NCBI GenBank assembly: GCA_035406965.1
Contig: DAONZU010000001.1
Span: 1 to 61,100 of the forward strand
Direction: 5' to 3'
Source: Bacteroidales bacterium
GTDB taxonomy: Bacteria > Bacteroidota > Bacteroidia > Bacteroidales > ML635J-15
Length of the DNA stretch: 61,100 nt
The notes beneath the pieces are model-generated. The model was not told where the DNA came from and searched no databases. It saw nothing but the letters and a program-made list of their open reading frames with translations. This document shows positions 13,776 through 46,872 of the stretch, one piece after another; position 1 is the stretch's first letter; each line of letters begins with the position of its first letter. The position numbers and the translations under genes are program-made.

Positions 13776-16593
13776 GAAAGAGAATTTTATTTCGGTTGAA
13801 GGAGCAAGAACAAATAATTTAAAAAATTTAAGCCTAGATATTCCACAACATCAACTATCAGTTATTACAGGCTTGAGCGGAAGCGGAAAATCTTCATTAG
13901 CTTTCGATACAATTTATGCCGAAGGACAACGCAGATATATGGAAACTTTTTCTGCTTATGCCAGAAGTTTCATTGGTAGCATGGAACGTCCAGATGTTGA
14001 CAGCATAACAGGACTTAGTCCGGTAATTGCTATAGAGCAAAAATCAACAATAAAAAACCCACGATCTACTGTCGGCACAATTACAGGAATATATGATTAC
14101 CTACGTCTGCTTTATGCTAGAGCCTCAACAGCATACTCGCACGTTACAGGCGAAAAAATGATTAAATACAGCGATGAACAAATCATAAATATTATTTTAA
14201 AAGATTTTAAAGACAAAGCTGTTTATATACTCGCACCTATTGTTGATGGAAGAAAAGGACACTATAAAGAAACTTTTGAAAGCCTAAGAAAAAAAGGTTT
14301 TCTAAACGCTAGAATTGACGGAGAAATTAGAGAAATTACTTATAATTTAAGACTTGACAGATATAAAACTCACTTTGTTGAATTGGTAATTGATAAATTA
14401 ATTATTAAAAATCAAGATAGAAATCGACTAAAAAAAACTATAGACTTAGCAATGAGTTTAGGCAAAAATATAATTATGGTTTTAGAAAAAGAAAGCGACA
14501 AACCTCGTTTTTTTAGTCGATTTTTAATGTGTCCTACAAGTGGAATTTCGTACAGAGAACCTGCTCCTTATACTTTTTCTTTCAACTCGCCACAAGGTGC
14601 TTGCCCAAAATGTAACGGACTTGGAGTAATTGCCGATATTGATATAAATAAAATTATACCAGACCCATCGCTTTCAATTTACAATGGCGGAATAAGCATT
14701 CTAGGAAAATATAAAAATAGTTTACCTTTTTGGATTCTAGAAGCCCTTGCCGACAAACTAAATTTTTCACTCAAAACACCTATAGATGAACTTAACGAAC
14801 AAGCAATTGATGCAGTTTTATTTGGCTATCCCGAAAGTTTACAATTAAAAAACACACCGCTGGGTCTAACTTCAAACTACTCTATAAGCTTTGACGGTAT
14901 TGTAAATCAAATTAAAGCCAAACAAGAAGACGAAGAAAAAAATCCATACTCAAATAAATCTTCATTTAGATTCAATAAGTTTATAACTTGTCCAAAATGT
15001 AATGGAACTAGACTGCAATCTGAAGCATTACAATTTAAAATTGCAGAAAAAAACATTGCCGAACTTGCAGAAATGGACATGTTAAACCTCAGTAAATTCC
15101 TAGATACTGTTTTAGACAAATTAGACAATAAAGAAAGATTAATTGCAACAGAAGTAATTAAAGAATTAAGTAGTAGAGTTAGCTTTTTACTTGATGTTGG
15201 CTTAGATTATTTATCTCTAAACCGTTCGGCAAACAGTTTGTCGGGAGGAGAATCTCAAAGGATTAGATTAGCAACTCAAATAGGAAGTCGTTTAGTAAAT
15301 GTTTTATATATTTTAGACGAACCAAGTATTGGCTTGCACCAACGCGATAATAAAAGACTAATAAATTCACTCAAACAACTCAGAGATAGAGGCAATTCCA
15401 TAATAGTTGTGGAACACGATAAAGAAATGATTACTGAAGCTGATTTTGTTGCAGACATCGGTCCTGGCGCTGGACGCAAAGGTGGACATTTAGTCTTTGC
15501 AGGAAAACCAAGCGACATGCTAAAATCAGATTCTCTTACTTCTCAATATATAAATGGAAAACTTAAAATCGAATTGCCTAAATCTAGAAGAGAAATTTCT
15601 GATAAAAAAATAATAATTCGTGGTGCTAAAGGTCATAATCTCAAAAATATTGATCTTGAAATCCCGCTTGGCGTAATGATTTGCATGACAGGCGTTTCGG
15701 GGAGTGGAAAATCAAGTATTTTAAACAAAACCCTTGTCCCTGCACTTTCGCGACATTTTTATAACTCAAACGCATTTCCATTAGACTACGACAAAATAGA
15801 AGGAATTGAAAACATAGATAAATTTATCGAAGTTGACCAATCGCCTATTGGAAGAACACCACGCTCAAACCCTGCAACATACACAGGACTGTTTACAGAT
15901 ATTCGTGAACTATTTGCAAGTTTGCCAGAAGCAAAAATCCGAGCTTACAAAGCAGGTAGATTTTCATTTAATATTAAAGGTGGCAGATGCGAAACTTGCA
16001 AAGGTGCTGGTGTAAAAACCATAGAAATGAATTTTCTACCCGATGTTTATGTACAATGCGAAACCTGTCGTGGCAAAAGATATAATAGAGAAACTTTAGA
16101 AGTAAAGTTTAAAGGAAAATCTATTTCTGATGTGCTTGAACTAACAATAAATGCAGCTGTTGAATTTTTTGAAAACATTCCACATATTTATAAAAAACTA
16201 ATTGTACTACAACAAGTTGGCTTGGGATATATTAATTTAGGACAATCAAGCACTACTCTCTCAGGTGGAGAAGCACAAAGAGTAAAACTTGCAACAGAAC
16301 TGATGAAACGAGAAACAGGCAATACTCTTTATATTTTAGACGAGCCTACAACAGGTTTGCATTTTGAAGATATAAAAGTGCTTCTTAAAGTTTTAAACTC
16401 TTTAGTTGACAGAGGCAATAGCATGATAATAATCGAACATAATTTAGATATAATTAAATCTGCCGACTGGATTATAGATATGGGACCAGAAGGTGGCGAA
16501 AGAGGCGGGACTGTTGTTGCTCAAGGAAAACCTGAAGATATTATCAAAAATAAAAATAGCTATACAGCTAAATATTTGAAAGATGAGTTGTAG
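13765..16593 (+). CDS. uvrA: Excinuclease ABC subunit A
   Basis: 942 aa. GARTNNLKN, two GLSGSGKSS/GVSGSGKSS Walker A sites, LSGGE(S/A)QR signatures, CPKCNG and CETCKGAG zinc modules. Confidence 0.97.
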   Translation: MMNKKENFISVEGARTNNLKNLSLDIPQHQLSVITGLSGSGKSSLAFDTIYAEGQRRYMETFSAYARSFIGSMERPDVDSITGLSPVIAIEQKSTIKNPRSTVGTITGIYDYLRLLYARASTAYSHVTGEKMIKYSDEQIINIILKDFKDKAVYILAPIVDGRKGHYKETFESLRKKGFLNARIDGEIREITYNLRLDRYKTHFVELVIDKLIIKNQDRNRLKKTIDLAMSLGKNIIMVLEKESDKPRFFSRFLMCPTSGISYREPAPYTFSFNSPQGACPKCNGLGVIADIDINKIIPDPSLSIYNGGISILGKYKNSLPFWILEALADKLNFSLKTPIDELNEQAIDAVLFGYPESLQLKNTPLGLTSNYSISFDGIVNQIKAKQEDEEKNPYSNKSSFRFNKFITCPKCNGTRLQSEALQFKIAEKNIAELAEMDMLNLSKFLDTVLDKLDNKERLIATEVIKELSSRVSFLLDVGLDYLSLNRSANSLSGGESQRIRLATQIGSRLVNVLYILDEPSIGLHQRDNKRLINSLKQLRDRGNSIIVVEHDKEMITEADFVADIGPGAGRKGGHLVFAGKPSDMLKSDSLTSQYINGKLKIELPKSRREISDKKIIIRGAKGHNLKNIDLEIPLGVMICMTGVSGSGKSSILNKTLVPALSRHFYNSNAFPLDYDKIEGIENIDKFIEVDQSPIGRTPRSNPATYTGLFTDIRELFASLPEAKIRAYKAGRFSFNIKGGRCETCKGAGVKTIEMNFLPDVYVQCETCRGKRYNRETLEVKFKGKSISDVLELTINAAVEFFENIPHIYKKLIVLQQVGLGYINLGQSSTTLSGGEAQRVKLATELMKRETGNTLYILDEPTTGLHFEDIKVLLKVLNSLVDRGNSMIIIEHNLDIIKSADWIIDMGPEGGERGGTVVAQGKPEDIIKNKNSYTAKYLKDEL

Positions 16594-16679: not shown

Positions 16680-17981
16680 ATGATAAATAAAACTATTCAT
16701 ACAATTATCAATGGAGATAGCAGGCAAATGAGTGAACTTAATGACGAGAGCGTTCATTTGATTGTTACTTCTCCACCATATTGGCAACTAAAAGATTATG
16801 GAACAGATAATCAAATAGGATTTCATGATGATTATGAAACTTACATAAACCACTTGAACCTCACTTGGGCTGAATGTTTTAGAGTCTTACATAAAGGATG
16901 TCGTTTATGTATAAATATAGGTGATCAATTTGCTCGTTCTACATACTATGGACGTTATAAAATAATACCAATTCACTCAGAAATTATCAAATTTTGTGAA
17001 ATGATAGGTTTCGACTTTATGGGACAAATCATATGGCAAAAACAAACAACAATGAACACATCAGGTGGAGCAAGCATAATGGGAAGTTATCCGCATCCAA
17101 GAAATGGAATTGTAAAATTAGATTTTGAATATATTTTATTATTTAAAAAACAAGGAAATGCTCCAAAACCAACAAAAGAACAAAAAGATAATTCTGCAAT
17201 GACAAATGAAGAATGGAAAACATATTTTAATGGTCATTGGTATTTTACTGGAGCTAAGCAAGACAAGCATTTAGCTATGTTTCCCGAAGAATTACCTCAT
17301 CGCTTAATCAAAATGTTTTCATTTCCAGAAGAAACCGTCTTAGACCCATTTATGGGAAGTGGCACAACGGCTCTAGCTGCAAGAAAATTAAATAGAAATT
17401 CTGTTGGTTATGAAATTAACCCCGATTTTATTTCAATTATAAAAGAAAAAATAGGTGGTGATGACGCTTTTATGAAAGTTGAAACTAAAATTATTAAACA
17501 ACAAGAAATTGAAATAGATTTTGCAGAAAAAATAAAAAAACTACCCTATCAATTTATTGACACACATAAGTTAGATAAAAAAGTTGATGTTAAAAAAATT
17601 CAATACGGCTCAAAAATCGATGCAAATAGTACAGGAAAACGAGAAGAGTATTTTTCTGTAAAAGAAATCATTACCCCTGAACTTATACGCCTGCATAACA
17701 ATCTGATTATCCGCTTAATAGGAATAAAACAAAATCCTAAAGCAAACGGAGAAGCAATTGAGTTTTTAACTGAAAAACTTCAAGGGAAAAAAGTATTTTT
17801 AAAATATGATAAAGTAAAACACGACAAAGAAAATAATTTAATGGTTTACCTATATCTTGAAAATAAAACTTTTATAAATGCACATTTATTAAAAGAAAAA
17901 TTAGCTATAGTGGATAATTCTATTGATTTTAAATATAAAACAAAATTTTCAAAATTATATAAAGAAGCGTATGGCAAATAA
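16680..17981 (+). CDS. Beta-class DNA methyltransferase (N4-cytosine/N6-adenine family, SPPY type) fused to a degenerate SNase-like C-terminal domain
   Basis: Motif IV LIVTSPPYW at aa 28-36 precedes motif I LDPFMGSGTT at aa 221-230. That order is the beta permutation of PF01555-type enzymes. Residues ~320-415 (nt ~17637-17924) align by eye to staphylococcal nuclease. Confidence 0.85.
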   Translation: MINKTIHTIINGDSRQMSELNDESVHLIVTSPPYWQLKDYGTDNQIGFHDDYETYINHLNLTWAECFRVLHKGCRLCINIGDQFARSTYYGRYKIIPIHSEIIKFCEMIGFDFMGQIIWQKQTTMNTSGGASIMGSYPHPRNGIVKLDFEYILLFKKQGNAPKPTKEQKDNSAMTNEEWKTYFNGHWYFTGAKQDKHLAMFPEELPHRLIKMFSFPEETVLDPFMGSGTTALAARKLNRNSVGYEINPDFISIIKEKIGGDDAFMKVETKIIKQQEIEIDFAEKIKKLPYQFIDTHKLDKKVDVKKIQYGSKIDANSTGKREEYFSVKEIITPELIRLHNNLIIRLIGIKQNPKANGEAIEFLTEKLQGKKVFLKYDKVKHDKENNLMVYLYLENKTFINAHLLKEKLAIVDNSIDFKYKTKFSKLYKEAYGK

Positions 17982-18057
17982 TTATTATTGGTTAGAACAA
18001 GAAAGAAAATAAATTACTTAGACTCTGTTCCTATAATTCTGAAAGATAAAAATAGCT

Positions 18058-18759
18058 ATGAAGAAAAAAGAAGTCAAAAGATACTCATTAGAATTTGGAA
18101 AGAAAGAAAAAGTGTTGAATTATGCTACTCAAACTTATCAACTTTCAAGACCAAATAAAGTTGGAGCTGTAATGGCTCTTATTAGAGAATGCCAGCCAAA
18201 CACTATTGAAGAATGGGAAAAATGGTACTTTGAGAATGCTAAAACAGCTGACAAAAATAATTTTAAAATTACTCGCGAAAGTTTAAAAGAACTTGGCGAA
18301 CGACTTTATGAGAAAATCACTGAAGTTGTTATTCCCGAATGGAAAGAAGCATTTAACGCATTAACTAAAGAAGATTGTTATAATTACATCTATAATTTAA
18401 CAATTAACCGAACTTATGATGGTTACTTGCGAGAAAAGTCAGTAGTAAATCATGGATTAGCAAAAGAATTTCCTGATGTGAGGTTTGAAGAAAGTCCACC
18501 CGAGCTAGACCACGCAGGAGATATAGATTATTTGGGATATGTAACTGCAAACAAAGCATTTGGCATACAAATAAAACCTATAACAGCTCAATCAAATTTT
18601 GGAAATTATTCTATTTCTGAAAGAATGAAAGCTAGCTTTGAAAATTTTAAAGATGATTTTGGAGGCAATGTATTTATTGTTTTCAGTTTAGATGGTGAAA
18701 TCGCTAACAAAGAAATAATTAAACAAATTAAAACAGAAATTGAAAGACTAAATAAATAA
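18058..18759 (+). CDS. Putative type II restriction endonuclease partner (PD-(D/E)xK-like); family not assignable by eye
   Basis: 233 aa, 76 nt downstream of the MTase on the same strand. Candidate nuclease signature GDIDYLG-x11-IQIKP (D155/D157 ... Q171-x-K173). No other recognisable domain. Confidence 0.45.
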   Translation: MKKKEVKRYSLEFGKKEKVLNYATQTYQLSRPNKVGAVMALIRECQPNTIEEWEKWYFENAKTADKNNFKITRESLKELGERLYEKITEVVIPEWKEAFNALTKEDCYNYIYNLTINRTYDGYLREKSVVNHGLAKEFPDVRFEESPPELDHAGDIDYLGYVTANKAFGIQIKPITAQSNFGNYSISERMKASFENFKDDFGGNVFIVFSLDGEIANKEIIKQIKTEIERLNK

Positions 18760-39124: not shown

Positions 39125-40786
39125 ATGAAAATTGCAATAGCTCAATTAAATTATCAAGTTGGAAATTTAGATTTCAATACTCAAAAAATCACAAATGCAA
39201 TTTTAACTGCAAAAAATCAAGAAGTAGATTTAATAATTTTTTCAGAACTTTCGATTTGCGGATACATACCATACGATTTGTTAAATTACAAGTATTTTAT
39301 TGATGATTGCTACAAAAAACTTGAAGAAATAAAATTACATTGCAAAGATATTGCTGCAATTGTAGGTTTGCCAACTAAAAACAACAAAAATACTAGAAAA
39401 AAACTATATAATTCTGCTGCTTTTCTTTATGATGGAGAAATTCAAAAATTAATTCATAAAACTCTGATACCAAGTTTTGATGTCATCAACGAAGACAGAT
39501 ATTTTGAAGAAAATCAATACTTTAGCATTATTAATTTCAAAAATAAAAAAATAGCTCTAACCATTGCCGAAGATTTATGGGACGAAGAAAAAATTTACGG
39601 CTCTTTTGAAGACAAAATAATGTTTAAAAATGCTCCTATGGAATATTTACATAATTTTAATCCTGACTTTATAGTAAATATTGCTGCTCAACCATTTGCC
39701 CACAATCAAACTGATTGTAAAAAAGATTTTATTTATAAAAATGCAAAAAAATATTCTATACCTATTATTAATATAAATCAAGTTGGAGCAAACACTGAAT
39801 TAATTTACGAAGGTGCTAGCATTGTTGTTGACAAAACTGGAAATACAGTTATTTCTGTCAATAGCTTTAAAGAAGATTTGAAAATTTTTGACCTTGATAA
39901 AATTACAAACACCTCACAAACAGACAATTACAATAAAAATTCAGATAACAAATACGAATCTATTTATTCTGCTCTAATACTTGGAATTAAAGATTTTTTT
40001 GAAAAATCAAATCTTAAAAAAGCTGTAGTTGGTTTATCTGGCGGATTAGATTCTGCTGTGGTTGTAGCACTTTTAGTTAATGCTATTGGAAAAGAAAATG
40101 TTGATGTTTTATTATTGCCAACAAAATATTCAAGTCAACATTCTATAGACGACTCGCTAAAAATGGTTAAAAGATGTGGAATAAAGCACCATATTGTTGA
40201 TATTGAAGAACTTAGGAAAATGTATTCGAAAACAATGAAAAAAGTTTTTGAAAATACAAAAGAAGATATTACTGAAGAAAATATTCAAGCTCGCATCAGA
40301 GGCAGTGTTTTGATGGCTTATTCAAATAAATTTGGAAATATTTTGCTCAACACTTCAAACAAAAGCGAGGCAGCAGTTGGCTATTCAACTATGTATGGCG
40401 ATATGAATGGCGCTCTTGCTGTTATTGGCGACTTATACAAAAGCGAAGTTTACGAACTAGCAGATTATATAAATCAAAAATTCAACAATATGATTCCTCA
40501 AAATATAATTGATAAAATCCCATCAGCAGAACTAAGACCAAATCAAAAAGATAGTGACTCTCTTCCTGACTATGAAATATTAGACAAAATTTTATTTTTG
40601 TACATAGAACAAAATTTTTCTGAAGAAGAAATTATAAAACAAGGACTTCCGCAAGAAATAGTTCACAAAATTATAAGACTAGTAAACAGTAGCGAGTTTA
40701 AAAGATTTCAAATGCCTCCTGTCTTAAAAGTTAGTCAAAAATGCTTTGGCTATGGAAGAAAAATGCCTTTGGTGGGAAGATATTAA
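39125..40786 (+). CDS. nadE: Glutamine-dependent NAD+ synthetase
   Basis: N-terminal CN-hydrolase domain (MKIAIAQLN..FSELSICGY) plus synthetase domain VVGLSGGLDSAVV, ..GYSTMYGDMNG..; 553 aa. Confidence 0.93.
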   Translation: MKIAIAQLNYQVGNLDFNTQKITNAILTAKNQEVDLIIFSELSICGYIPYDLLNYKYFIDDCYKKLEEIKLHCKDIAAIVGLPTKNNKNTRKKLYNSAAFLYDGEIQKLIHKTLIPSFDVINEDRYFEENQYFSIINFKNKKIALTIAEDLWDEEKIYGSFEDKIMFKNAPMEYLHNFNPDFIVNIAAQPFAHNQTDCKKDFIYKNAKKYSIPIININQVGANTELIYEGASIVVDKTGNTVISVNSFKEDLKIFDLDKITNTSQTDNYNKNSDNKYESIYSALILGIKDFFEKSNLKKAVVGLSGGLDSAVVVALLVNAIGKENVDVLLLPTKYSSQHSIDDSLKMVKRCGIKHHIVDIEELRKMYSKTMKKVFENTKEDITEENIQARIRGSVLMAYSNKFGNILLNTSNKSEAAVGYSTMYGDMNGALAVIGDLYKSEVYELADYINQKFNNMIPQNIIDKIPSAELRPNQKDSDSLPDYEILDKILFLYIEQNFSEEEIIKQGLPQEIVHKIIRLVNSSEFKRFQMPPVLKVSQKCFGYGRKMPLVGRY

Positions 40787-40789
40787 GAA

Positions 40790-40837
40790 TTACTCATTCT
40801 CCAAAAAATATTGTTTTTCTACATCATATTCAGTAAC
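40790..40837 (-). pseudogene. Orphan 3'-terminal gene fragment, left copy of a 48-bp direct repeat
   Basis: The minus strand reads VTEYDVEKQYFLENE*. It is 45/48 nt identical to the true 3' end of the 121-aa ORF at 43375-43422 (VTEYDVEKQYFLEND*). Upstream the frame holds only an A/T-run-derived K/F-rich stretch, with no Met before a stop at 40874-40876. Confidence 0.75.
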
Positions 40838-40851
40838 TTTTTTTCTTTTTA

Positions 40852-40882
40852 TTTGCTTATTAAAAAAAAATGTTTATATTTG
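40852..40882 (+). promoter_or_regulatory. Consensus Bacteroidetes promoter: -33 TTTG (40852-40855), 19-nt spacer, -7 TATATTTG (40875-40882)
   Basis: Read directly. It points rightward into the cassette, about 500 nt upstream of the first cassette gene. Confidence 0.5.
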
Positions 40883-40994
40883 TACAAGAAATAGTATAAA
40901 AAACATTTTAGCGTGCAAAACAACTTTAAATATAGACAAAAAAAATTGTTTTTATTAAACATGCTGTTTTTTAATTTATTTTACATAGCACTTA

Positions 40995-41006
40995 CCCCCC
41001 CCCCCC
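40995..41006 (+). repeat. C12 homopolymer tract
   Basis: cttaCCCCCCCCCCCCgcac. I saw no comparable G/C homopolymer elsewhere in this AT-rich window. Confidence 0.95.
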
Positions 41007-41182
41007 GCACCTCCTAAACACCTTGCCACACAATGACTATGAGAATCTTCGCCATTTTGAAAGCAGACATGAAAACACATTACCATATAAAAAAATTGAC
41101 AAAAATAGTTGCAATACAAATAAAAATACCTATGTAAAAAAATTAACAAAACAATTAAAAGAAAAACATGGGACTTAACATA

Positions 41183-41220
41183 GGCGACTTGTCTTTAAAA
41201 CTTTAAAGAGACCAGTCGCC
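41183..41220 (+). other. Interrupted stem-loop in the cassette leader
   Basis: GGCGACTTGTCTT..loop..AGAGACCAGTCGCC. 7 bp, one mismatch, then ~6 bp including a G-U pair. No adjacent T-run; the nearest TTTTT is 14 nt downstream. Confidence 0.5.
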
Positions 41221-41384
41221 GTTATACTAATAGTTTTTACGAGCAATATTTAAGCAACGACAGAGTCCAAAAATAGCTATTACAGTAAACTCTGTTGTAA
41301 GGTAAGATAAAAGTAATAGCTATATTATAAAATTTATGCTTGATTTTATAATGAATATTAAATAAGCAAAAAAAAATAAAAATT

Positions 41385-42080
41385 ATGAAAAAAGTTTTTT
41401 TAAATTCAATAATAATCCTAGTTATTTTAGGAGTTAGTGTATTATCTTGTGAAAAAGCTGAAGAAATAAAAAAAGCTGAAAAAGAAAATGTTAAAGAATC
41501 AGAAATAATGTCAACAAAAAGTATGAAAAATTATCTAGAAATAGATTTTGCTTACAATAATTTCTCACATAAATTTATTGGAGAAAAACCTAATGACATG
41601 CTAATATGGCAAGAAAAAATCGGAACTGATCAAGAAAGGAAAAGCAAGTTTAATTTTGATTATAAAAGCATGCCTGACATTAACGTTAAGCACGTATCTG
41701 ATAAAGTTTTAATTTTAAATATTAATAAAGTTGACTATATATTTGACTATGGTATGACAAAAAATTATTGGGACGCTACAGTGAGCACCAGAACCAGTAG
41801 TAATATTGCAAAAATAAGCATGTACACAGATGCTCATGATTTTAATGAAATGATGGATTTTTACAAAAAAAACCCTGTCATTTCATTTAATTCAAGAGGT
41901 CCTATCACATGGATACTTGCATATCAAGCTGCAAAAATAGCCATTATTGTATGGGCAGCGGATAGATATTGTGATGCGAAAGTCGAAAATCAAAAAAACG
42001 AATGTATTGAAAAAGGTCTATGCTACACAGTTAAATTTTGTGGTGCTGAATGTCGTGAATGTGCTAATAACAACAATTAA
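41385..42080 (+). CDS. Hypothetical lipoprotein with hydrophobic helix and cysteine-rich C-terminal tail
   Basis: Lipobox VLSC followed by an acidic EKAEE. Near-C-terminal hydrophobic segment ITWILAYQAAKIAIIVWAA. The tail RYCDAKVENQKNECIEKGLCYTVKFCGAECRECANNNN has 7 Cys in the last 38 residues. Confidence 0.7.
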   Translation: MKKVFLNSIIILVILGVSVLSCEKAEEIKKAEKENVKESEIMSTKSMKNYLEIDFAYNNFSHKFIGEKPNDMLIWQEKIGTDQERKSKFNFDYKSMPDINVKHVSDKVLILNINKVDYIFDYGMTKNYWDATVSTRTSSNIAKISMYTDAHDFNEMMDFYKKNPVISFNSRGPITWILAYQAAKIAIIVWAADRYCDAKVENQKNECIEKGLCYTVKFCGAECRECANNNN

Positions 42081-42107
42081 ATAAAAATTTTATTATATAA
42101 AAAACAA

Positions 42108-42156
42108 GTCGCCAGAAATTTATTAACTTAAATTTCTGGCGACATAATTTTTTTAC
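42108..42156 (+). terminator. Strong intrinsic terminator between the two cassette genes
   Basis: GTCGCCAGAAATTT-attaactt-AAATTTCTGGCGAC. A 14-bp perfect stem followed by ATAATTTTTTT. Confidence 0.8.
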
Positions 42157-42164
42157 TATAATAT

Positions 42165-43352
42165 ATGAAATTTAAACTAAAATTAAAACACTACACGCTA
42201 TATTTAGGACTTATAACCTACATTATAGGAATTGCTTTAAATATTTTTTATTCTCTGTATTCAAATCAACCAGGTCCGCAACAGTCGCAATCTCCATTGT
42301 TTGAACTTTTGTCATTGTTTCCACCTATAATTATACTAGCCTTAACATTAGTAAGTGCATCAATTTTTGAAGAATTGGCATTTCGAGGATGGACTATTAA
42401 ACATAAGTTTTCAAAATATATCTCAATCATAGGTATTTTGTTTTATTGTTTTTTAGCAACAAACAGTTTCATAATTTGTGTCATTGTATTAGCTCTACTA
42501 ATTTTTGTTTTTTTCTACAAAAATGATGAATTGAGCCAATTCTTAAAAGTTATTGTTACAAGTCTAATTTTTGCATTCATCCACTTTGATAACTTTAGCG
42601 ACAATATGCGATATATCAGCATCTTGCAACTATTCGGATTATCTCTGATTATAAGTTACTTTGCACTTAGATTTGGATTTGTTTACGGAATATTAATACA
42701 TTTCGCAAATAATCTTTTAGCAACAATTATAATATTTACAACATCTGTTAATTACAGCACAAGTATTGTAAAAGAAAATTATGTTGCAAATATTGAAAAA
42801 ATCGAATTTTTAGAAAACTCATCTTCAATACTAAAAGGTAGTTTTCAAGATTCTATTGTTCATGTTGGAAATATTACACAAATTGCTGTAGAATTAGCCC
42901 CTTTTAATAATGAAGTAATTTACAAAGCAAAATTAAGTAGTTTAGACTCATATCATTATGTCGCTAAATGTAAAAACAAGGGAACTTGTACACTTGACAG
43001 ACAAGAATTATTAAAAGACTTTTTAAATCACACTAATTTAAAAACAGACACAATATTAGTTGATGCATTTATTTTAAAAATTACAGATATTGATAAATTG
43101 CAAAAGCATAGAGCAGATGGACAAACAACATTTATTAAATATTTGGTTGAAATTTTAAGAAATGATTTTGATATACCTATTATAATAAATGAAGATATTG
43201 CAGATATTAGTTTTATTATGCCTGATAATTTTTATAGAATATTTCACAAATTATCTACTGAAGACAAAATCAAAAAACTGGAAACTGACTATGGCATTCT
43301 TTTAGAAAAGACAATTGATAAAACTGTTTCAGTGATTTACTTTTTTGAATAA
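42165..43352 (+). CDS. CPBP family intramembrane glutamic endopeptidase (CAAX protease / Abi) fused to an unassigned ~200-aa C-terminal domain
   Basis: All three CPBP motifs are intact: SIFEELAFRGW (EExxxR), FAFIHFDN (FxxxH), ILIHFANNL (HxxxN). About 6 TM segments in the first ~195 aa. Residues ~200-395 are soluble with no motif I recognise. Confidence 0.8.
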   Translation: MKFKLKLKHYTLYLGLITYIIGIALNIFYSLYSNQPGPQQSQSPLFELLSLFPPIIILALTLVSASIFEELAFRGWTIKHKFSKYISIIGILFYCFLATNSFIICVIVLALLIFVFFYKNDELSQFLKVIVTSLIFAFIHFDNFSDNMRYISILQLFGLSLIISYFALRFGFVYGILIHFANNLLATIIIFTTSVNYSTSIVKENYVANIEKIEFLENSSSILKGSFQDSIVHVGNITQIAVELAPFNNEVIYKAKLSSLDSYHYVAKCKNKGTCTLDRQELLKDFLNHTNLKTDTILVDAFILKITDIDKLQKHRADGQTTFIKYLVEILRNDFDIPIIINEDIADISFIMPDNFYRIFHKLSTEDKIKKLETDYGILLEKTIDKTVSVIYFFE

Positions 43353-43374
43353 AAACTCAAAGTTTTAATATTCT

Positions 43375-43422
43375 TTAATCATTCTCTAAAAAATATTGTT
43401 TTTCCACATCATATTCAGTAAC
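43375..43422 (-). repeat. Right copy of the 48-bp direct repeat (functional 3' end of the 121-aa ORF)
   Basis: See 40790..40837. The three mismatches are two synonymous changes and one E/D change in the minus-strand frame. Confidence 0.85.
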
Positions 43423-43740
43423 CTCATCAAAAGGGTCTAAAGCAACAATTTTAAACTTGAGTAAATAGCTATTATCTTTAAACACCACAGAATCTGCAAG
43501 CAAAGAATCCTTAATTTCTGCTTCGTGCTCATCAAAGATTAATATAATAGGTGCGATTTCTCTACCTTGTTGTCCTTTTTGTGCATCAACAGATTTTGGT
43601 AAATATTTTGTCAAACAAGCTTTTGTGGCTGGAAAATCATCAAGTCCACCTATACTCAAATCATAATTATAAATTGTTGCACAAGCAAAAAATGCTAATA
43701 CCAAAGAATACAAAATTGCTGGAATTATTATTTTTTTCAT
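43375..43740 (-). CDS. Hypothetical lipoprotein (121 aa)
   Basis: Signal with lipobox LAFFAC. ATGA overlap with the upstream thioredoxin-like gene. Confidence 0.65.
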   Translation of the reverse strand: MKKIIIPAILYSLVLAFFACATIYNYDLSIGGLDDFPATKACLTKYLPKSVDAQKGQQGREIAPIILIFDEHEAEIKDSLLADSVVFKDNSYLLKFKIVALDPFDEVTEYDVEKQYFLEND

Positions 43741-44468
43741 TGAGATATAATTTTAGAAGTAAATTTTGAGTTGTCATCAAAAACAAAATTTACGATATAC
43801 AAAGATTTTGAAATTAGTGAAGGAATTCTGACAAGGTTTTTTGGATATTTTTTATTTAAGAGTAAACGTCCCATATAATCGTAAATTTGAATTTCACAAA
43901 CTTTTTTATCAGATTCAAAATTCAAAAAATTACCCACAATATTAAATGTAAAATCATTATTTTTTTCTTCAAGTTTTGAAGAAGGTAAGCAATAATTTAA
44001 TGTTTCAACTATATTAAAATAAGATATTGATTCTGAAACAATATAATCACAAACCATCATTATTTGTGGAGTATAATTTATTTCATATAATCCAAACACA
44101 TCTGTTGCATGTCCTGTAGGGAAACATCTAAAAGTTATATTATGCAATTCCATAAAAGCTTCTATTTCTTCGCTATTATAATAATAGTGTACAATTCCCC
44201 AGACAATTAAATCTTGGGTTCCCGAACCATATTGCCTATGAATAGAGTCCACAATTGGAGCTACTTCAATACAAGAGCCACAATTTAGAGAGAAAAAATG
44301 TAGTAAAACCACTTTTCCTGCTGCAATGCTATCATAAAGGTTAACTTCCTCGCCTTTAGTGTCTAACAAAGAAAAATCAGGAGCTGGTTTATAGGTTTGA
44401 GCTGGTAAAAATTCAAAACTTATTATTAAAATAAATAACAAAATTAATATATACTTTACTTTTTTCAC
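43737..44468 (-). CDS. TlpA-like thioredoxin-fold protein carrying a T9SS type A C-terminal sorting domain
   Basis: Signal peptide. APDFSLLDTKGEEVNL..VVLLHFFSLNCGSC (CxxC). C-terminal ~75 aa ..CEIQIYDYMGRLLLNKKY..SLYIVNFVFDDNSKFTSKIISQ looks like a Por-type CTD. Confidence 0.7.
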   Translation of the reverse strand: MKKVKYILILLFILIISFEFLPAQTYKPAPDFSLLDTKGEEVNLYDSIAAGKVVLLHFFSLNCGSCIEVAPIVDSIHRQYGSGTQDLIVWGIVHYYYNSEEIEAFMELHNITFRCFPTGHATDVFGLYEINYTPQIMMVCDYIVSESISYFNIVETLNYCLPSSKLEEKNNDFTFNIVGNFLNFESDKKVCEIQIYDYMGRLLLNKKYPKNLVRIPSLISKSLYIVNFVFDDNSKFTSKIISQ

Positions 44469-44643: not shown

Positions 44644-46872
44644 ATGGTTACAGAAAATATGTTTTGGTTAGTTCCTTTTGCTTCTATTTTGGCTCTAGGT
44701 TTTGCCTGGTACTTTTTTAGGAGTATGATGAAAGAAAAAGAAGGAACACACATGATGAAAAAAGTTGCTTTGTATGTCAAAAAAGGTGCTATGGCTTACT
44801 TAAGGCAACAATACAAAGTAGTTGCAATTGTTTTTATTGCTTTAACACTTTTATTTGCAATTATGGCTTACGTACTAAAAATCCAAAACCCTTGGGTTCC
44901 TTTTGCCTTTATTACAGGCGGATTTTTCTCAGGTTTAGCTGGATTTTTGGGTATGAAAACTGCTACTCATGCTTCGTCGCGAGCTGCAAATGCTGCACGA
45001 CACTCACTAAATGCGAGCTTAAAACTTGCTTTTAGATCTGGAGCAGTTATGGGTTTAGTAGTTGTTGGCTTAGGTTTATTAGACATTTCGCTTTGGTTTT
45101 ACGTTTTACAATATGTAATTGGAGCATTAGACTCTACTACCAATCCTTTAATTGCAGCCGACCCATCAATGAAATTAATTATAATTACTACCACAACTCT
45201 AACTTTTGGTATGGGAGCTTCAACACAAGCATTATTTGCGCGTGTTGGTGGAGGTATTTATACAAAAGCAGCTGATGTTGGAGCTGACTTAGTAGGTAAA
45301 TTAGAAGCCGACATTCCAGAAGATGACCCACGCAACCCAGCAACAATAGCTGATAATGTTGGAGATAATGTTGGAGACGTTGCTGGAATGGGTGCCGACT
45401 TATACGAATCATATTGTGGTGCAATACTTTCTACTGCAGCTCTAGGTGCTGTAGCATTCAAATCTAGCGGACTTGACGTTCAATTTAATGCAGTAATTGC
45501 ACCAATGCTAATTGCTGCTGTAGGAATTATTTTGTCAATTCTAGGGATTTTCTTAGTAAAAACCAAAGAAGGTGCAAACCAAAAACAACTTCTAGCTGCA
45601 TTAGGTAGAGGAGTAAACATAAGCTCAATTTTAATCGCTTTTTTCTCGTTAGGAGTATTATATTACTTAGGAATACCAAACTACCAAGGCATTTGGATTG
45701 CAATGTTAGTTGGCTTAGTAGGTGGAATAGGAATTGGAAAATCCACAGAATATTTTACCTCATCGGGCTTTAAACCTACTCAAAAAATTTCAGAGTCTGC
45801 AAAAACAGGACATGCAACAGTTATTATTCAAGGTGTTGGGATTGGTATGATTTCAACTGCAATTCCTGTTTTAATTGTAGCCACTTCAATAATTTTATCT
45901 TATTTATTTGCTTCAAAATTCGACTTTAGCAATATTGGAATGGGACTTTATGGCATTGCAATAGCAGCGGTTGGAATGCTTTCAACTTTAGGCATTACCC
46001 TAGCAACAGACGCTTACGGACCTATTGCTGACAATGCGGGCGGGAATGCTCAAATGAGTGGACTTGAACCAGAAGTTAGACAAAGAACAGATGCTTTAGA
46101 CCAACTAGGCAACACCACTGCCGCAACAGGCAAAGGCTTTGCTATAGGCTCGGCTGCTTTAACTGCTTTAGCTCTTTTAGCTTCATATATCGAAGAAATA
46201 AAAATTGCTATGGGAAGATTGCCCGAAAAAGCTAGCGAATTTTTGAGTACTACTGGTGTTGACATCCATTCTGCAACTATTCCAGATATCATGTCGTTTT
46301 TCAAAGTAAATTTAATGAATCCTCTTGTTATTGTTGGAATATTTATTGGAGCAATGACGGCTTTCTTATTTTCAGGTTTAACAATGAATGCTGTTGGGCG
46401 TGCTGCCGAAGGCATGGTTAATGAAGTAAGAAGACAATTCAGAGAAATAAAAGGAATTTTAACAGGAGAAGCTGAACCTGATTATGCTCGCTGTGTGGAA
46501 ATATCAACAAAAAGTGCACAAAGAGAAATGATTTTACCTTCCACTTTAGCTATTGCAATACCTATAATTATGGGACTTTTATTCGGCGTTCCTGGAGTAA
46601 TGGGATTGTTGCTTGGTGGTATTTCTACAGGTTTTGTTTTAGCAATATTTATGGCAAATTCTGGAGGTTCTTGGGACAATGCAAAAAAACATGTCGAAGA
46701 AGGCTGTTGTGGTGGTAAAGGATCCGAAGCTCATAAAGCTGCAATTACTGGGGATACTGTTGGTGACCCATTTAAAGACACATCTGGACCAAGCTTAAAT
46801 ATATTAATAAAACTTATGAGTATGGTTGCTATAGTAATGGCTGGACTTACTGCTGCATTTTCACTTTTATAA
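44644..46872 (+). CDS. hppA: Membrane-bound proton/sodium-translocating pyrophosphatase
   Basis: [51 protein letters not shown]; 742 aa polytopic protein. Confidence 0.96.

Follow-up and report, generated by a model that had tools for sequence, protein, structure and literature searches.

A window of 61.1 kb from a Bacteroidales bacterium (contig DAONZU010000001.1, from a metagenome-type assembly) carries two near-identical 48-nt segments in the interval between nadE, the gene for an NAD+ synthase, and a gene for a 121-aa lipoprotein. The two segments bracket a small unit that encodes a second lipoprotein of 231 aa and an intramembrane protease of the CPBP family. The repeat pair is most likely the scar of a single past recombination at a variable locus and not a working mobile element, and the left copy is best explained as the outer limit of a structural allele of this interval that is specific to the lineage. 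The left copy itself is dead: it derives from the 3' end of the 121-aa gene and cannot be translated.

The copies lie at 40790-40837 and 43375-43422 and form a direct repeat with three mismatches (45/48, 94%), as determined both with a repeat finder and with a mismatch-tolerant pattern search. The 48-mer has only these two matches on both strands of the 61.1 kb, chance matches numbered 0 in 100 dinucleotide-preserving shuffles, and in a scan of the whole window the pair was the sole dispersed direct repeat of more than approximately 84% identity outside coding repeats. Translation showed the right copy to be the true 3' end of the minus-strand 121-aa gene, ending ...EVTEYDVEKQYFLEND, while the minus-strand reading of the left copy is VTEYDVEKQYFLENE. 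Followed upstream, the frame of the left copy meets a stop after 12 codons, and neither ATG nor GTG nor TTG occurs before it. The stop codon of nadE ends at 40786 and is followed by the three nucleotides GAA and then by the left copy. Two of the three differences between the copies are synonymous (Leu TTG/TTA and Val GTA/GTG) and the third exchanges E for D. When set against the alleles of relatives, the homology of the left copy extends 2 nt further, so that on the evidence of repeat searches, alignments and translation the orphan tail comprises the last 15 codons and the stop of the 121-aa gene on the minus strand of 40790-40839. This 50-nt orphan matches the tail of the type found in the relative UBA5219 at 48/50 positions, and its segment 40792-40839 matches the tail in contig L041 at 46/48; the two tails within the window differ at 3/48 (4/50). 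Beyond the orphan the homology stops abruptly. Smith-Waterman alignment of the adjoining leader with the body of the 121-aa gene and with the neighbouring thioredoxin-like (trx) gene scored no better than alignment with shuffles, and the idea that the leader is a decayed copy of either gene was rejected on this ground. A preliminary description of this DNA, which had aligned the repeat by hand, is upheld in all of these particulars: the 45/48 match, the right copy as the real gene end, the left copy just after the nadE stop as an orphan tail without a start codon, the abrupt end of homology and the two synonymous differences.

Both copies are spanned by four contigs from different samples and assemblers (L009, L010, L011 and L014), all of which carry the same three differences. 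These contigs are 99.93-99.96% identical to 40700-43500, and differ in length only in a poly-C tract. In all, at least six contigs, each from a different metagenome sample, have the same layout, which indicates that the arrangement of the repeats is not an artefact of assembly.

The interval was compared among approximately 30 related contigs, which include a close clade of 92-97% nucleotide identity, and three structural alleles were found in this clade. The first is that of the window and of 8-9 contigs of the same strain. In the second, nadE is followed by an mscS pseudogene, a 140-nt spacer, an intact CPBP gene and the 121-aa gene; this order is carried by the metagenome-assembled genome (MAG) UBA5219 (L027) and by L020, L040 and L045. 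In the third, carried by L041 and 13 contigs including GCA_035395365.1, nadE is followed by an intact mscS gene of 284 aa, the last approximately 52 nt of the CPBP gene and the 121-aa gene. The mscS gene (L027 11718-12570; L020 11826-12603; L045 6504-7359; L041 9169-10023) is thus a pseudogene, with an early stop and a frameshift, where the CPBP gene is intact, is intact where the CPBP gene is deleted, and does not occur in the window. Only the first allele has the orphan tail, the leader and the 231-aa gene, and each locus in the relatives has one copy of a 48-mer-like tail. Homology with the window ends on the left at 40792, after the nadE TAA and GAATTA, in L020, L027, L040, L041 and the contigs with the third allele, and at the nadE stop (40786) in L045. 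On the right it begins at the CPBP ATG (42165) in the second allele and at 43300, in the 3' end of the CPBP gene, in the third, and never at the right repeat. No sequence common to the segments of the first and second alleles was detectable by Smith-Waterman alignment, the scores being at shuffle level.

The DNA between the tails is a genuine module, since its two genes are kept together in distant genomes. In the three genomic contexts that were retrieved for distant homologues of the 231-aa lipoprotein (approximately 22-26% identity), the next gene was in every case a CPBP homologue, with 29-31% identity and a length of 384 and 401 aa where the gene was complete; in one of the three an insertion sequence (IS) element lies between the two genes. 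These pairs are at 3310-5183 of L042, 322-2233 of L044 and 162-2855 of L043, in unrelated contexts, and no repeats were seen in the short sequences that flank them. Because the pairing of lipoprotein and CPBP is ancient, the second and third alleles are most plausibly ones that have lost part of the module and not alternative cassettes.

One further contig (L019, from the JGI) carries the trx and 121-aa genes as far as codon E108 and then leaves the window sequence 9 nt inside the right repeat, at a junction that corresponds to 43414 of the window. Its distal part (1098-1538), of 440 nt, has no match elsewhere, has a higher GC content (32%) and holds, in frame, a fragment similar to a histidine phosphatase. 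This contig may be a chimeric assembly or may represent a fourth rearrangement, with a breakpoint within approximately 10 nt of the inner boundary of the orphan.

The junctions themselves carry short repeats. The orphan starts with the TTA that ends the GAATTA after nadE, a microhomology of 3 nt, and the deletion in the third allele lies at a 12-nt direct repeat, CTTTTAGAAAAG, found downstream of mscS and in the 3' end of the CPBP gene. Short microhomology at junctions is typical of illegitimate recombination, and the short repeats seen here are a signature of illegitimate, short-repeat recombination. Divergence along the locus is mosaic. Between the window and L045 the CPBP gene is 98.0% identical, as compared with 94.6% for nadE, 93.4% for the 121-aa gene and 90.5% for trx (Fisher p=1e-12), and the differing CPBP codons divide into 13 synonymous and 9 non-synonymous, so that the low divergence of this gene is a sign of recent shared ancestry and not of constraint. 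The density of mismatches increases right at the right repeat, mscS is also less diverged than its flanks, and nadE is itself a mosaic in its divergence. The module, or at least the CPBP gene, has moved between lineages by recombination. Compared with five real tails, the orphan consists of the relatives' consensus with one private change, and has fewer private changes than the real tail of the window. At repeat position 31, the only site with three states, the orphan shares T with L041, the closest relative of the window genome-wide, and the real tail of the window shares C with L045, which has the closest CPBP gene. This pattern of variants hints that the two tails may be of different ancestry.

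The explanation that we favour, tentatively and with a little less than half of our confidence, is that of a passive scar: DNA would have been inserted once at the gene tail, by a single crossover or by duplication, and a deletion would later have trimmed the result. Module DNA from a related lineage would have entered the chromosome through a single crossover, or a duplicative event of equal effect, within the last approximately 50 bp of the 121-aa gene, either through Campbell-type integration of a circularised fragment or through homology-anchored illegitimate recombination, and the driver would have been general recombination and not a dedicated integrase. One tail would have remained on the gene and the second would have been stranded beyond the module, after which a deletion at the TTA microhomology would have removed mscS and brought the stranded tail beside nadE; alternatively, the recipient may already have been without mscS. 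A single crossover in the tail, with a circularised or tandem copy of module DNA as the partner of the chromosome, is the simplest route to one tail on each side of the module. The repeats would now be passive and could at most allow rare RecA-dependent loss of the module. The explanation starts from features that are observed directly in the DNA, namely the repeat, the orphan status of the left copy, the alleles of the relatives, the conservation of the module, the junction microhomology and the mosaic divergence. The mechanism of recombination is something that we infer, and so is the order of the crossover and of the deletion that removed mscS, since neither the postulated intermediate (mscS, spacer, orphan tail and leader) nor an empty site was seen in any contig. 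That absence counts against the passive scar, and there are other such points. A length of 48-50 bp is near the lower limit for efficient RecA recombination, and the tidy ends of the orphan, one precisely on the stop codon and the other 3 nt past nadE, need coincidence or selection. The argument for different ancestry of the tails leans on one or two variable sites. A scan of JGI metagenomes with the 48-mer missed known contigs of the first allele, so that the absence of other alleles there is weak evidence, and a site-specific recombinase acting in trans is possible and would be compatible with a window of 61 kb.

A fairly unlikely but coherent alternative begins with an ancestor in which nadE, mscS, the spacer, the module, the tail and the 121-aa gene followed one another. 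A tandem duplication of the module together with the last 48 bp of the gene would have been followed by a microhomology deletion of mscS and of the first module copy, with the tail of that copy left beside nadE. All of the junctions would then be ordinary illegitimate ones, as the TTA microhomology at the left junction and the short-repeat deletions documented at the same locus would lead one to expect; a recombinase is not needed, and the second and third alleles would be single deletions from the same ancestor. The differences between the tails (3/48, or 4/50) nevertheless exceed expectation if the duplication is younger than the split from L041, which is approximately 4% diverged, and the tails share variants with different relatives. 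The low divergence of the CPBP gene suggests import rather than copying in situ, and the tandem intermediate has not been seen.

It is unlikely, and somewhat more so, that the unit is an integrative cassette without a recombinase, in which the 48-mers are the attachment sites attL and attR, the 3' end of the 121-aa gene is targeted and restored, and the recombinase is supplied by another part of the genome or by a different element. Such a cassette would resemble a cis-mobilisable element (CIME), defined as an element that has lost its integration and transfer genes but keeps attL and attR (PMC6323972). Direct repeats of 48 nt are indeed present at both ends, they derive from a gene 3' end and bracket a complete, conserved module exactly, and the gene remains whole. 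The distribution of the module is patchy, its CPBP gene is younger than its flanks and the transition in divergence falls at the right repeat. Set against this is the behaviour of the relatives. Boundaries lying exactly at the repeats were not found among the approximately 30 contigs, the CPBP gene persists in relatives without the left repeat, and an empty site, with nadE directly beside the 121-aa gene and a single 48-mer, was present in none of them. No integrase, resolvase or transposase domain was found by Pfam in the insert or in any open reading frame of at least 110 aa in the window, as the preliminary description had already stated for integrase and transposase. A search for the 35-nt core of the 48-mer recovered only the real gene tail (two contigs) in the JGI metagenomes and nothing in viral contigs, and the 48-mer is known at this gene only. 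The distant copies of the module stand in unrelated contexts with no visible flanking repeats, albeit with short flanks, and the repeats of the window are 6% diverged.

The base composition of the insert does not differ from that of the flanks and no tRNA or tmRNA target was found. The segment 40787-42164 had no plasmid match, its one phage match was short, AT-rich and to a Flavobacterium phage, and no defence-system model (PADLOC) was matched. A transposon or IS element does not fit either: the duplication is 48 bp as against 2-15 bp, no transposase is present and no terminal inverted repeat could be seen by eye. Evidence for a mobile, att-bounded insert is thus lacking, and the indel boundaries in the relatives contradict a simple insertion of 2.6 kb. 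Of the proposal in the preliminary description that DNA had been integrated or a cassette exchanged at the gene tail, the part concerning recombination stands, in that the interval varies among relatives and has undergone recombinational exchange, while the mobile cassette bounded by att sites is without evidence. The empty site that it envisaged is absent from the related contigs, the place of an alternative cassette at the same junction is taken in the relatives by mscS, which is not flanked by 48-mers, the limits of presence and absence lie not at the repeats but at 40792 on the left and at 42165 or 43300 on the right, with the CPBP gene present in loci that have no orphan tail, and further copies of the 48-mer were found neither in the window nor in the JGI and viral scans. 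These same scans showed no dispersal of the 48-mer either, so it does not behave as the generic dispersed repeat that the preliminary description had named as the finding that would undo its own reading.

A bolder form of the cassette, which we regard as decidedly unlikely, would make the 48-mers the working sites of a tiny recombinase-less lipoprotein/CPBP cassette, possibly phase-variable through its poly-C tract, that docks at the 3' end of one gene and is exchanged among co-resident Bacteroidales with help in trans. If true, Bacteroidales would have a small system of gene cassettes bounded by att sites that belongs neither to integrons nor to the families of integrative and conjugative elements (ICE) and integrative and mobilisable elements (IME).

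It is very improbable that the orphan has been retained for a function, whether as the 3' end or terminator of nadE or as a target of regulation or of antisense pairing by which the module and the 121-aa gene would be connected. It does have fewer private changes than the real tail and lies 3 nt past the nadE stop, but no terminator-like structure was detected at the orphan, the relatives do without it, and the sites are far too few to show constraint. A mis-join at a shared k-mer or a chance AT-rich match has a negligible probability, for although the assembly is of metagenome type and several assemblies break in the leader, the same three differences recur in all four spanning contigs, which come from different samples and assemblers, the shuffles gave no match, and the left copy matches the real tails of relatives at 46/48 to 48/50 positions.

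The passive scar thus remains the favoured account of the repeats, and the module that they enclose merits description in its own right. As had been proposed, it is a self-contained unit, made up of a TAnnTTTG box that resembles a promoter, a long structured leader, a pair of genes that are likewise neighbours in distant genomes and a strong intrinsic terminator. The non-coding leader occupies 547 nt on the plus strand (40838-41384), as delimited by sequence, motif scan and folding. It contains a single plus-strand example of the Bacteroidetes-type -7 box, TATATTTG (TAnnTTTG), at 40875-40882. The leader folds markedly better than shuffled sequence (z = -3.2 for 41165-41335 and -3.6 for 40885-41384), with a hairpin of 7+6 pairs at 41183-41220 and nested long-range pairing at 41230-41323. 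A search of the whole window against Rfam at the gathering threshold gave no match, and a search of 40700-42250 at an E-value threshold gave nothing credible. On the strength of its predicted folding the leader may be an undescribed cis-regulatory element of the module.

A tract of 12 C residues (40995-41006) lies in this leader, in a genome of 27% GC. In otherwise identical assemblies its length is C11 (L009, L010, L011 and L014) or at least C14 (at the ends of L012 and L013), differences that may be due to homopolymer errors of sequencing or assembly, and several assemblies break inside the leader, often at the tract. Homopolymers are also present in the leaders of distant copies of the module, with T14 followed by CGCACC in L043 (C12 followed by GCACC in the window) and A8G6 in L042. 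The variable tract could reflect phase variation or noise in the sequencing of homopolymers. Each of three sequencing runs yielded a Logan contig (L015, L016 and L017) that begins exactly at 41273, where a perfect inverted repeat of 11 nt (41273-41283 and 41313-41323) has its first base; this suggests a branch in the assembly graph and a population variant just upstream. Two AT-rich inverted-repeat pairs were also noted, one (40840-40864 and 41358-41382, 22/25) covering nearly the whole leader and the other (40965-40988 and 41130-41153, 20/24) enclosing the poly-C tract. There was no sign of an invertible segment in the leader, its orientation being identical in all assemblies.

The first gene of the module (41385-42080, plus strand) encodes the 231-aa lipoprotein, in which translation and family searches revealed a hydrophobic helix and a C-terminal six-Cys motif. 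The protein matched no Pfam, NCBIfam or PADLOC model, and the only hit of a word-indexed search among 5.8 billion proteins was the protein itself. An exhaustive phmmer search of 1.8 billion cluster representatives recovered 24 distant relatives with approximately 22-39% identity. The full-length relatives that were aligned, of approximately 165-240 aa, have in common a lipoprotein signal and a hydrophobic helix, and the pattern of cysteines at their C-terminus is invariant. In the gene pairs of the window and of L042, L043 and L044, the lipoprotein has approximately 210-230 aa and ends in YCDxxIxxxVxxCTxxGxCSxVxxCxAxCVxC, and the CPBP protein that follows has a C-terminal extension of approximately 190 aa. 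The AlphaFold model of the 231-aa protein (pLDDT, a per-residue confidence score, of 43.5) was too poor for a fold search. A terminator search placed a bidirectional intrinsic terminator hairpin of 15 pairs, with T-runs on both sides, at 42108-42143. The second gene (42165-43352, plus strand) encodes a CPBP or Rce1-like intramembrane protease of 395 aa, which matches Pfam PF02517 with 31.5 bits (cut-off 22.4). The motifs EExxxR, FxxxH and HxxxN are present as EELAFR, FAFIH and HFANN, and there is a C-terminal extension of approximately 190 aa; a sequence search of the PDB gave no match. Since the CPBP protein has its full set of catalytic motifs and a lipoprotein as its fixed neighbour, the simplest guess would be that the protease has the six-Cys lipoprotein as its substrate or partner.

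On the left the module is preceded by nadE (39125-40786, plus strand), which encodes a glutamine-dependent NAD+ synthase of 553 aa (NCBIfam NF010588, E=8.6e-181; Pfam NAD_synthase) and forms the left core flank. On the right a 22-nt spacer (43353-43374), identified from the alignments, separates the stop codon of the CPBP gene from that of the 121-aa gene, and is kept in all alleles, including those of relatives without an intact CPBP gene. The 121-aa gene itself (43375-43740, minus strand), whose last 48 nt are the right repeat, belongs by its product to a tiny protein family and overlaps by 4 nt the upstream trx-like gene (43737-44468, minus strand), for which domain searches indicated a thioredoxin-fold protein of 243 aa with a C-terminal sorting signal of the type IX secretion system (T9SS). 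These two genes form a block with an H+-PPase gene (44644-46872, plus strand). The block of H+-PPase, thioredoxin-like T9SS protein and 121-aa protein is kept across 13 Bacteroidales MAGs, and in all of these except the closest relative, UBA5219, synteny stops at the stop codon of the 121-aa gene.

Elsewhere in the window a small restriction-modification (R-M) unit (16680-18759) sits between uvrA and a gene for a transporter of the major facilitator superfamily (MFS). It encodes an N6/N4 DNA methylase that is joined in one protein with an SNase domain (16680-17981), together with a restriction endonuclease of MjaI-like type (18058-18759). A candidate second gene-tail duplication at the junction of uvrA and this unit (16540-16572 and 18036-18068) matches at 26/33 positions, is AT-rich and was judged to be due to chance.

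The locus provides a worked example of accessory gene turnover between two core genes in an uncultured Bacteroidales population, with three structural alleles, microhomology deletions and an imported module younger than its flanks, and it illustrates that the duplication of a gene tail alone is no proof of a mobile element. Possibly the more useful lead is the gene pair, itself previously undescribed and kept in distant genomes, that encodes a six-Cys lipoprotein and a CPBP protein with an extra domain, behind a long structured leader with a homopolymer. CPBP proteins are known as immunity or processing factors for exported peptides. To our knowledge few substrates of CPBP proteins have been identified, and together with the fixed partner gene this suggests a testable relationship of substrate or partner. 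LnsB, a CPBP protein, is a component of the lipoprotein N-acylation system of Staphylococcus aureus (PMC7387801). As in loci that combine a CPBP/Abi protein with an exported partner, the CPBP gene here lies directly 3' of a gene for an exported protein, its catalytic motifs are present and the pairing is kept across distant genomes. In contrast to such loci, the partner is a six-Cys lipoprotein of approximately 230 aa and not a small leader-bearing peptide, the CPBP protein has an extra C-terminal domain of approximately 190 aa, and transporter and regulator genes are missing. A locus for a bacteriocin with Abi-type immunity is a poor fit for similar reasons, as the partner is a lipoprotein of 231 aa, the neighbourhood lacks an exporter gene and no bacteriocin model was matched.

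The arrangement also resembles att duplications at gene 3' ends, and CIMEs, in that the repeats bracket an accessory unit, the target gene is intact, one copy is an orphan and no recombinase lies inside. It departs from elements with att sites in that no cognate integrase is known, no empty site or second occurrence was found, the indel boundaries of the relatives lie off the repeats, the unit is only 2.5 kb long and the repeats are 6% diverged. A second comparison is with the scars of general and illegitimate recombination. Homology-anchored illegitimate recombination uses microhomologies of 3-10 bp at the non-homologous end (PMC6382021), and homology-facilitated illegitimate recombination (HFIR) was described by de Vries and Wackernagel (2002), as cited there. 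HFIR usually deletes recipient DNA, whereas here there is a duplication. In common with such scars, the locus has one side that is anchored by homology and another junction that is abrupt, with microhomologies of 3-12 nt, and the imported tract is mosaic in its divergence and brings no gene for a dedicated enzyme. The scar is of an ordinary kind, at an unusually well-documented polymorphic locus.

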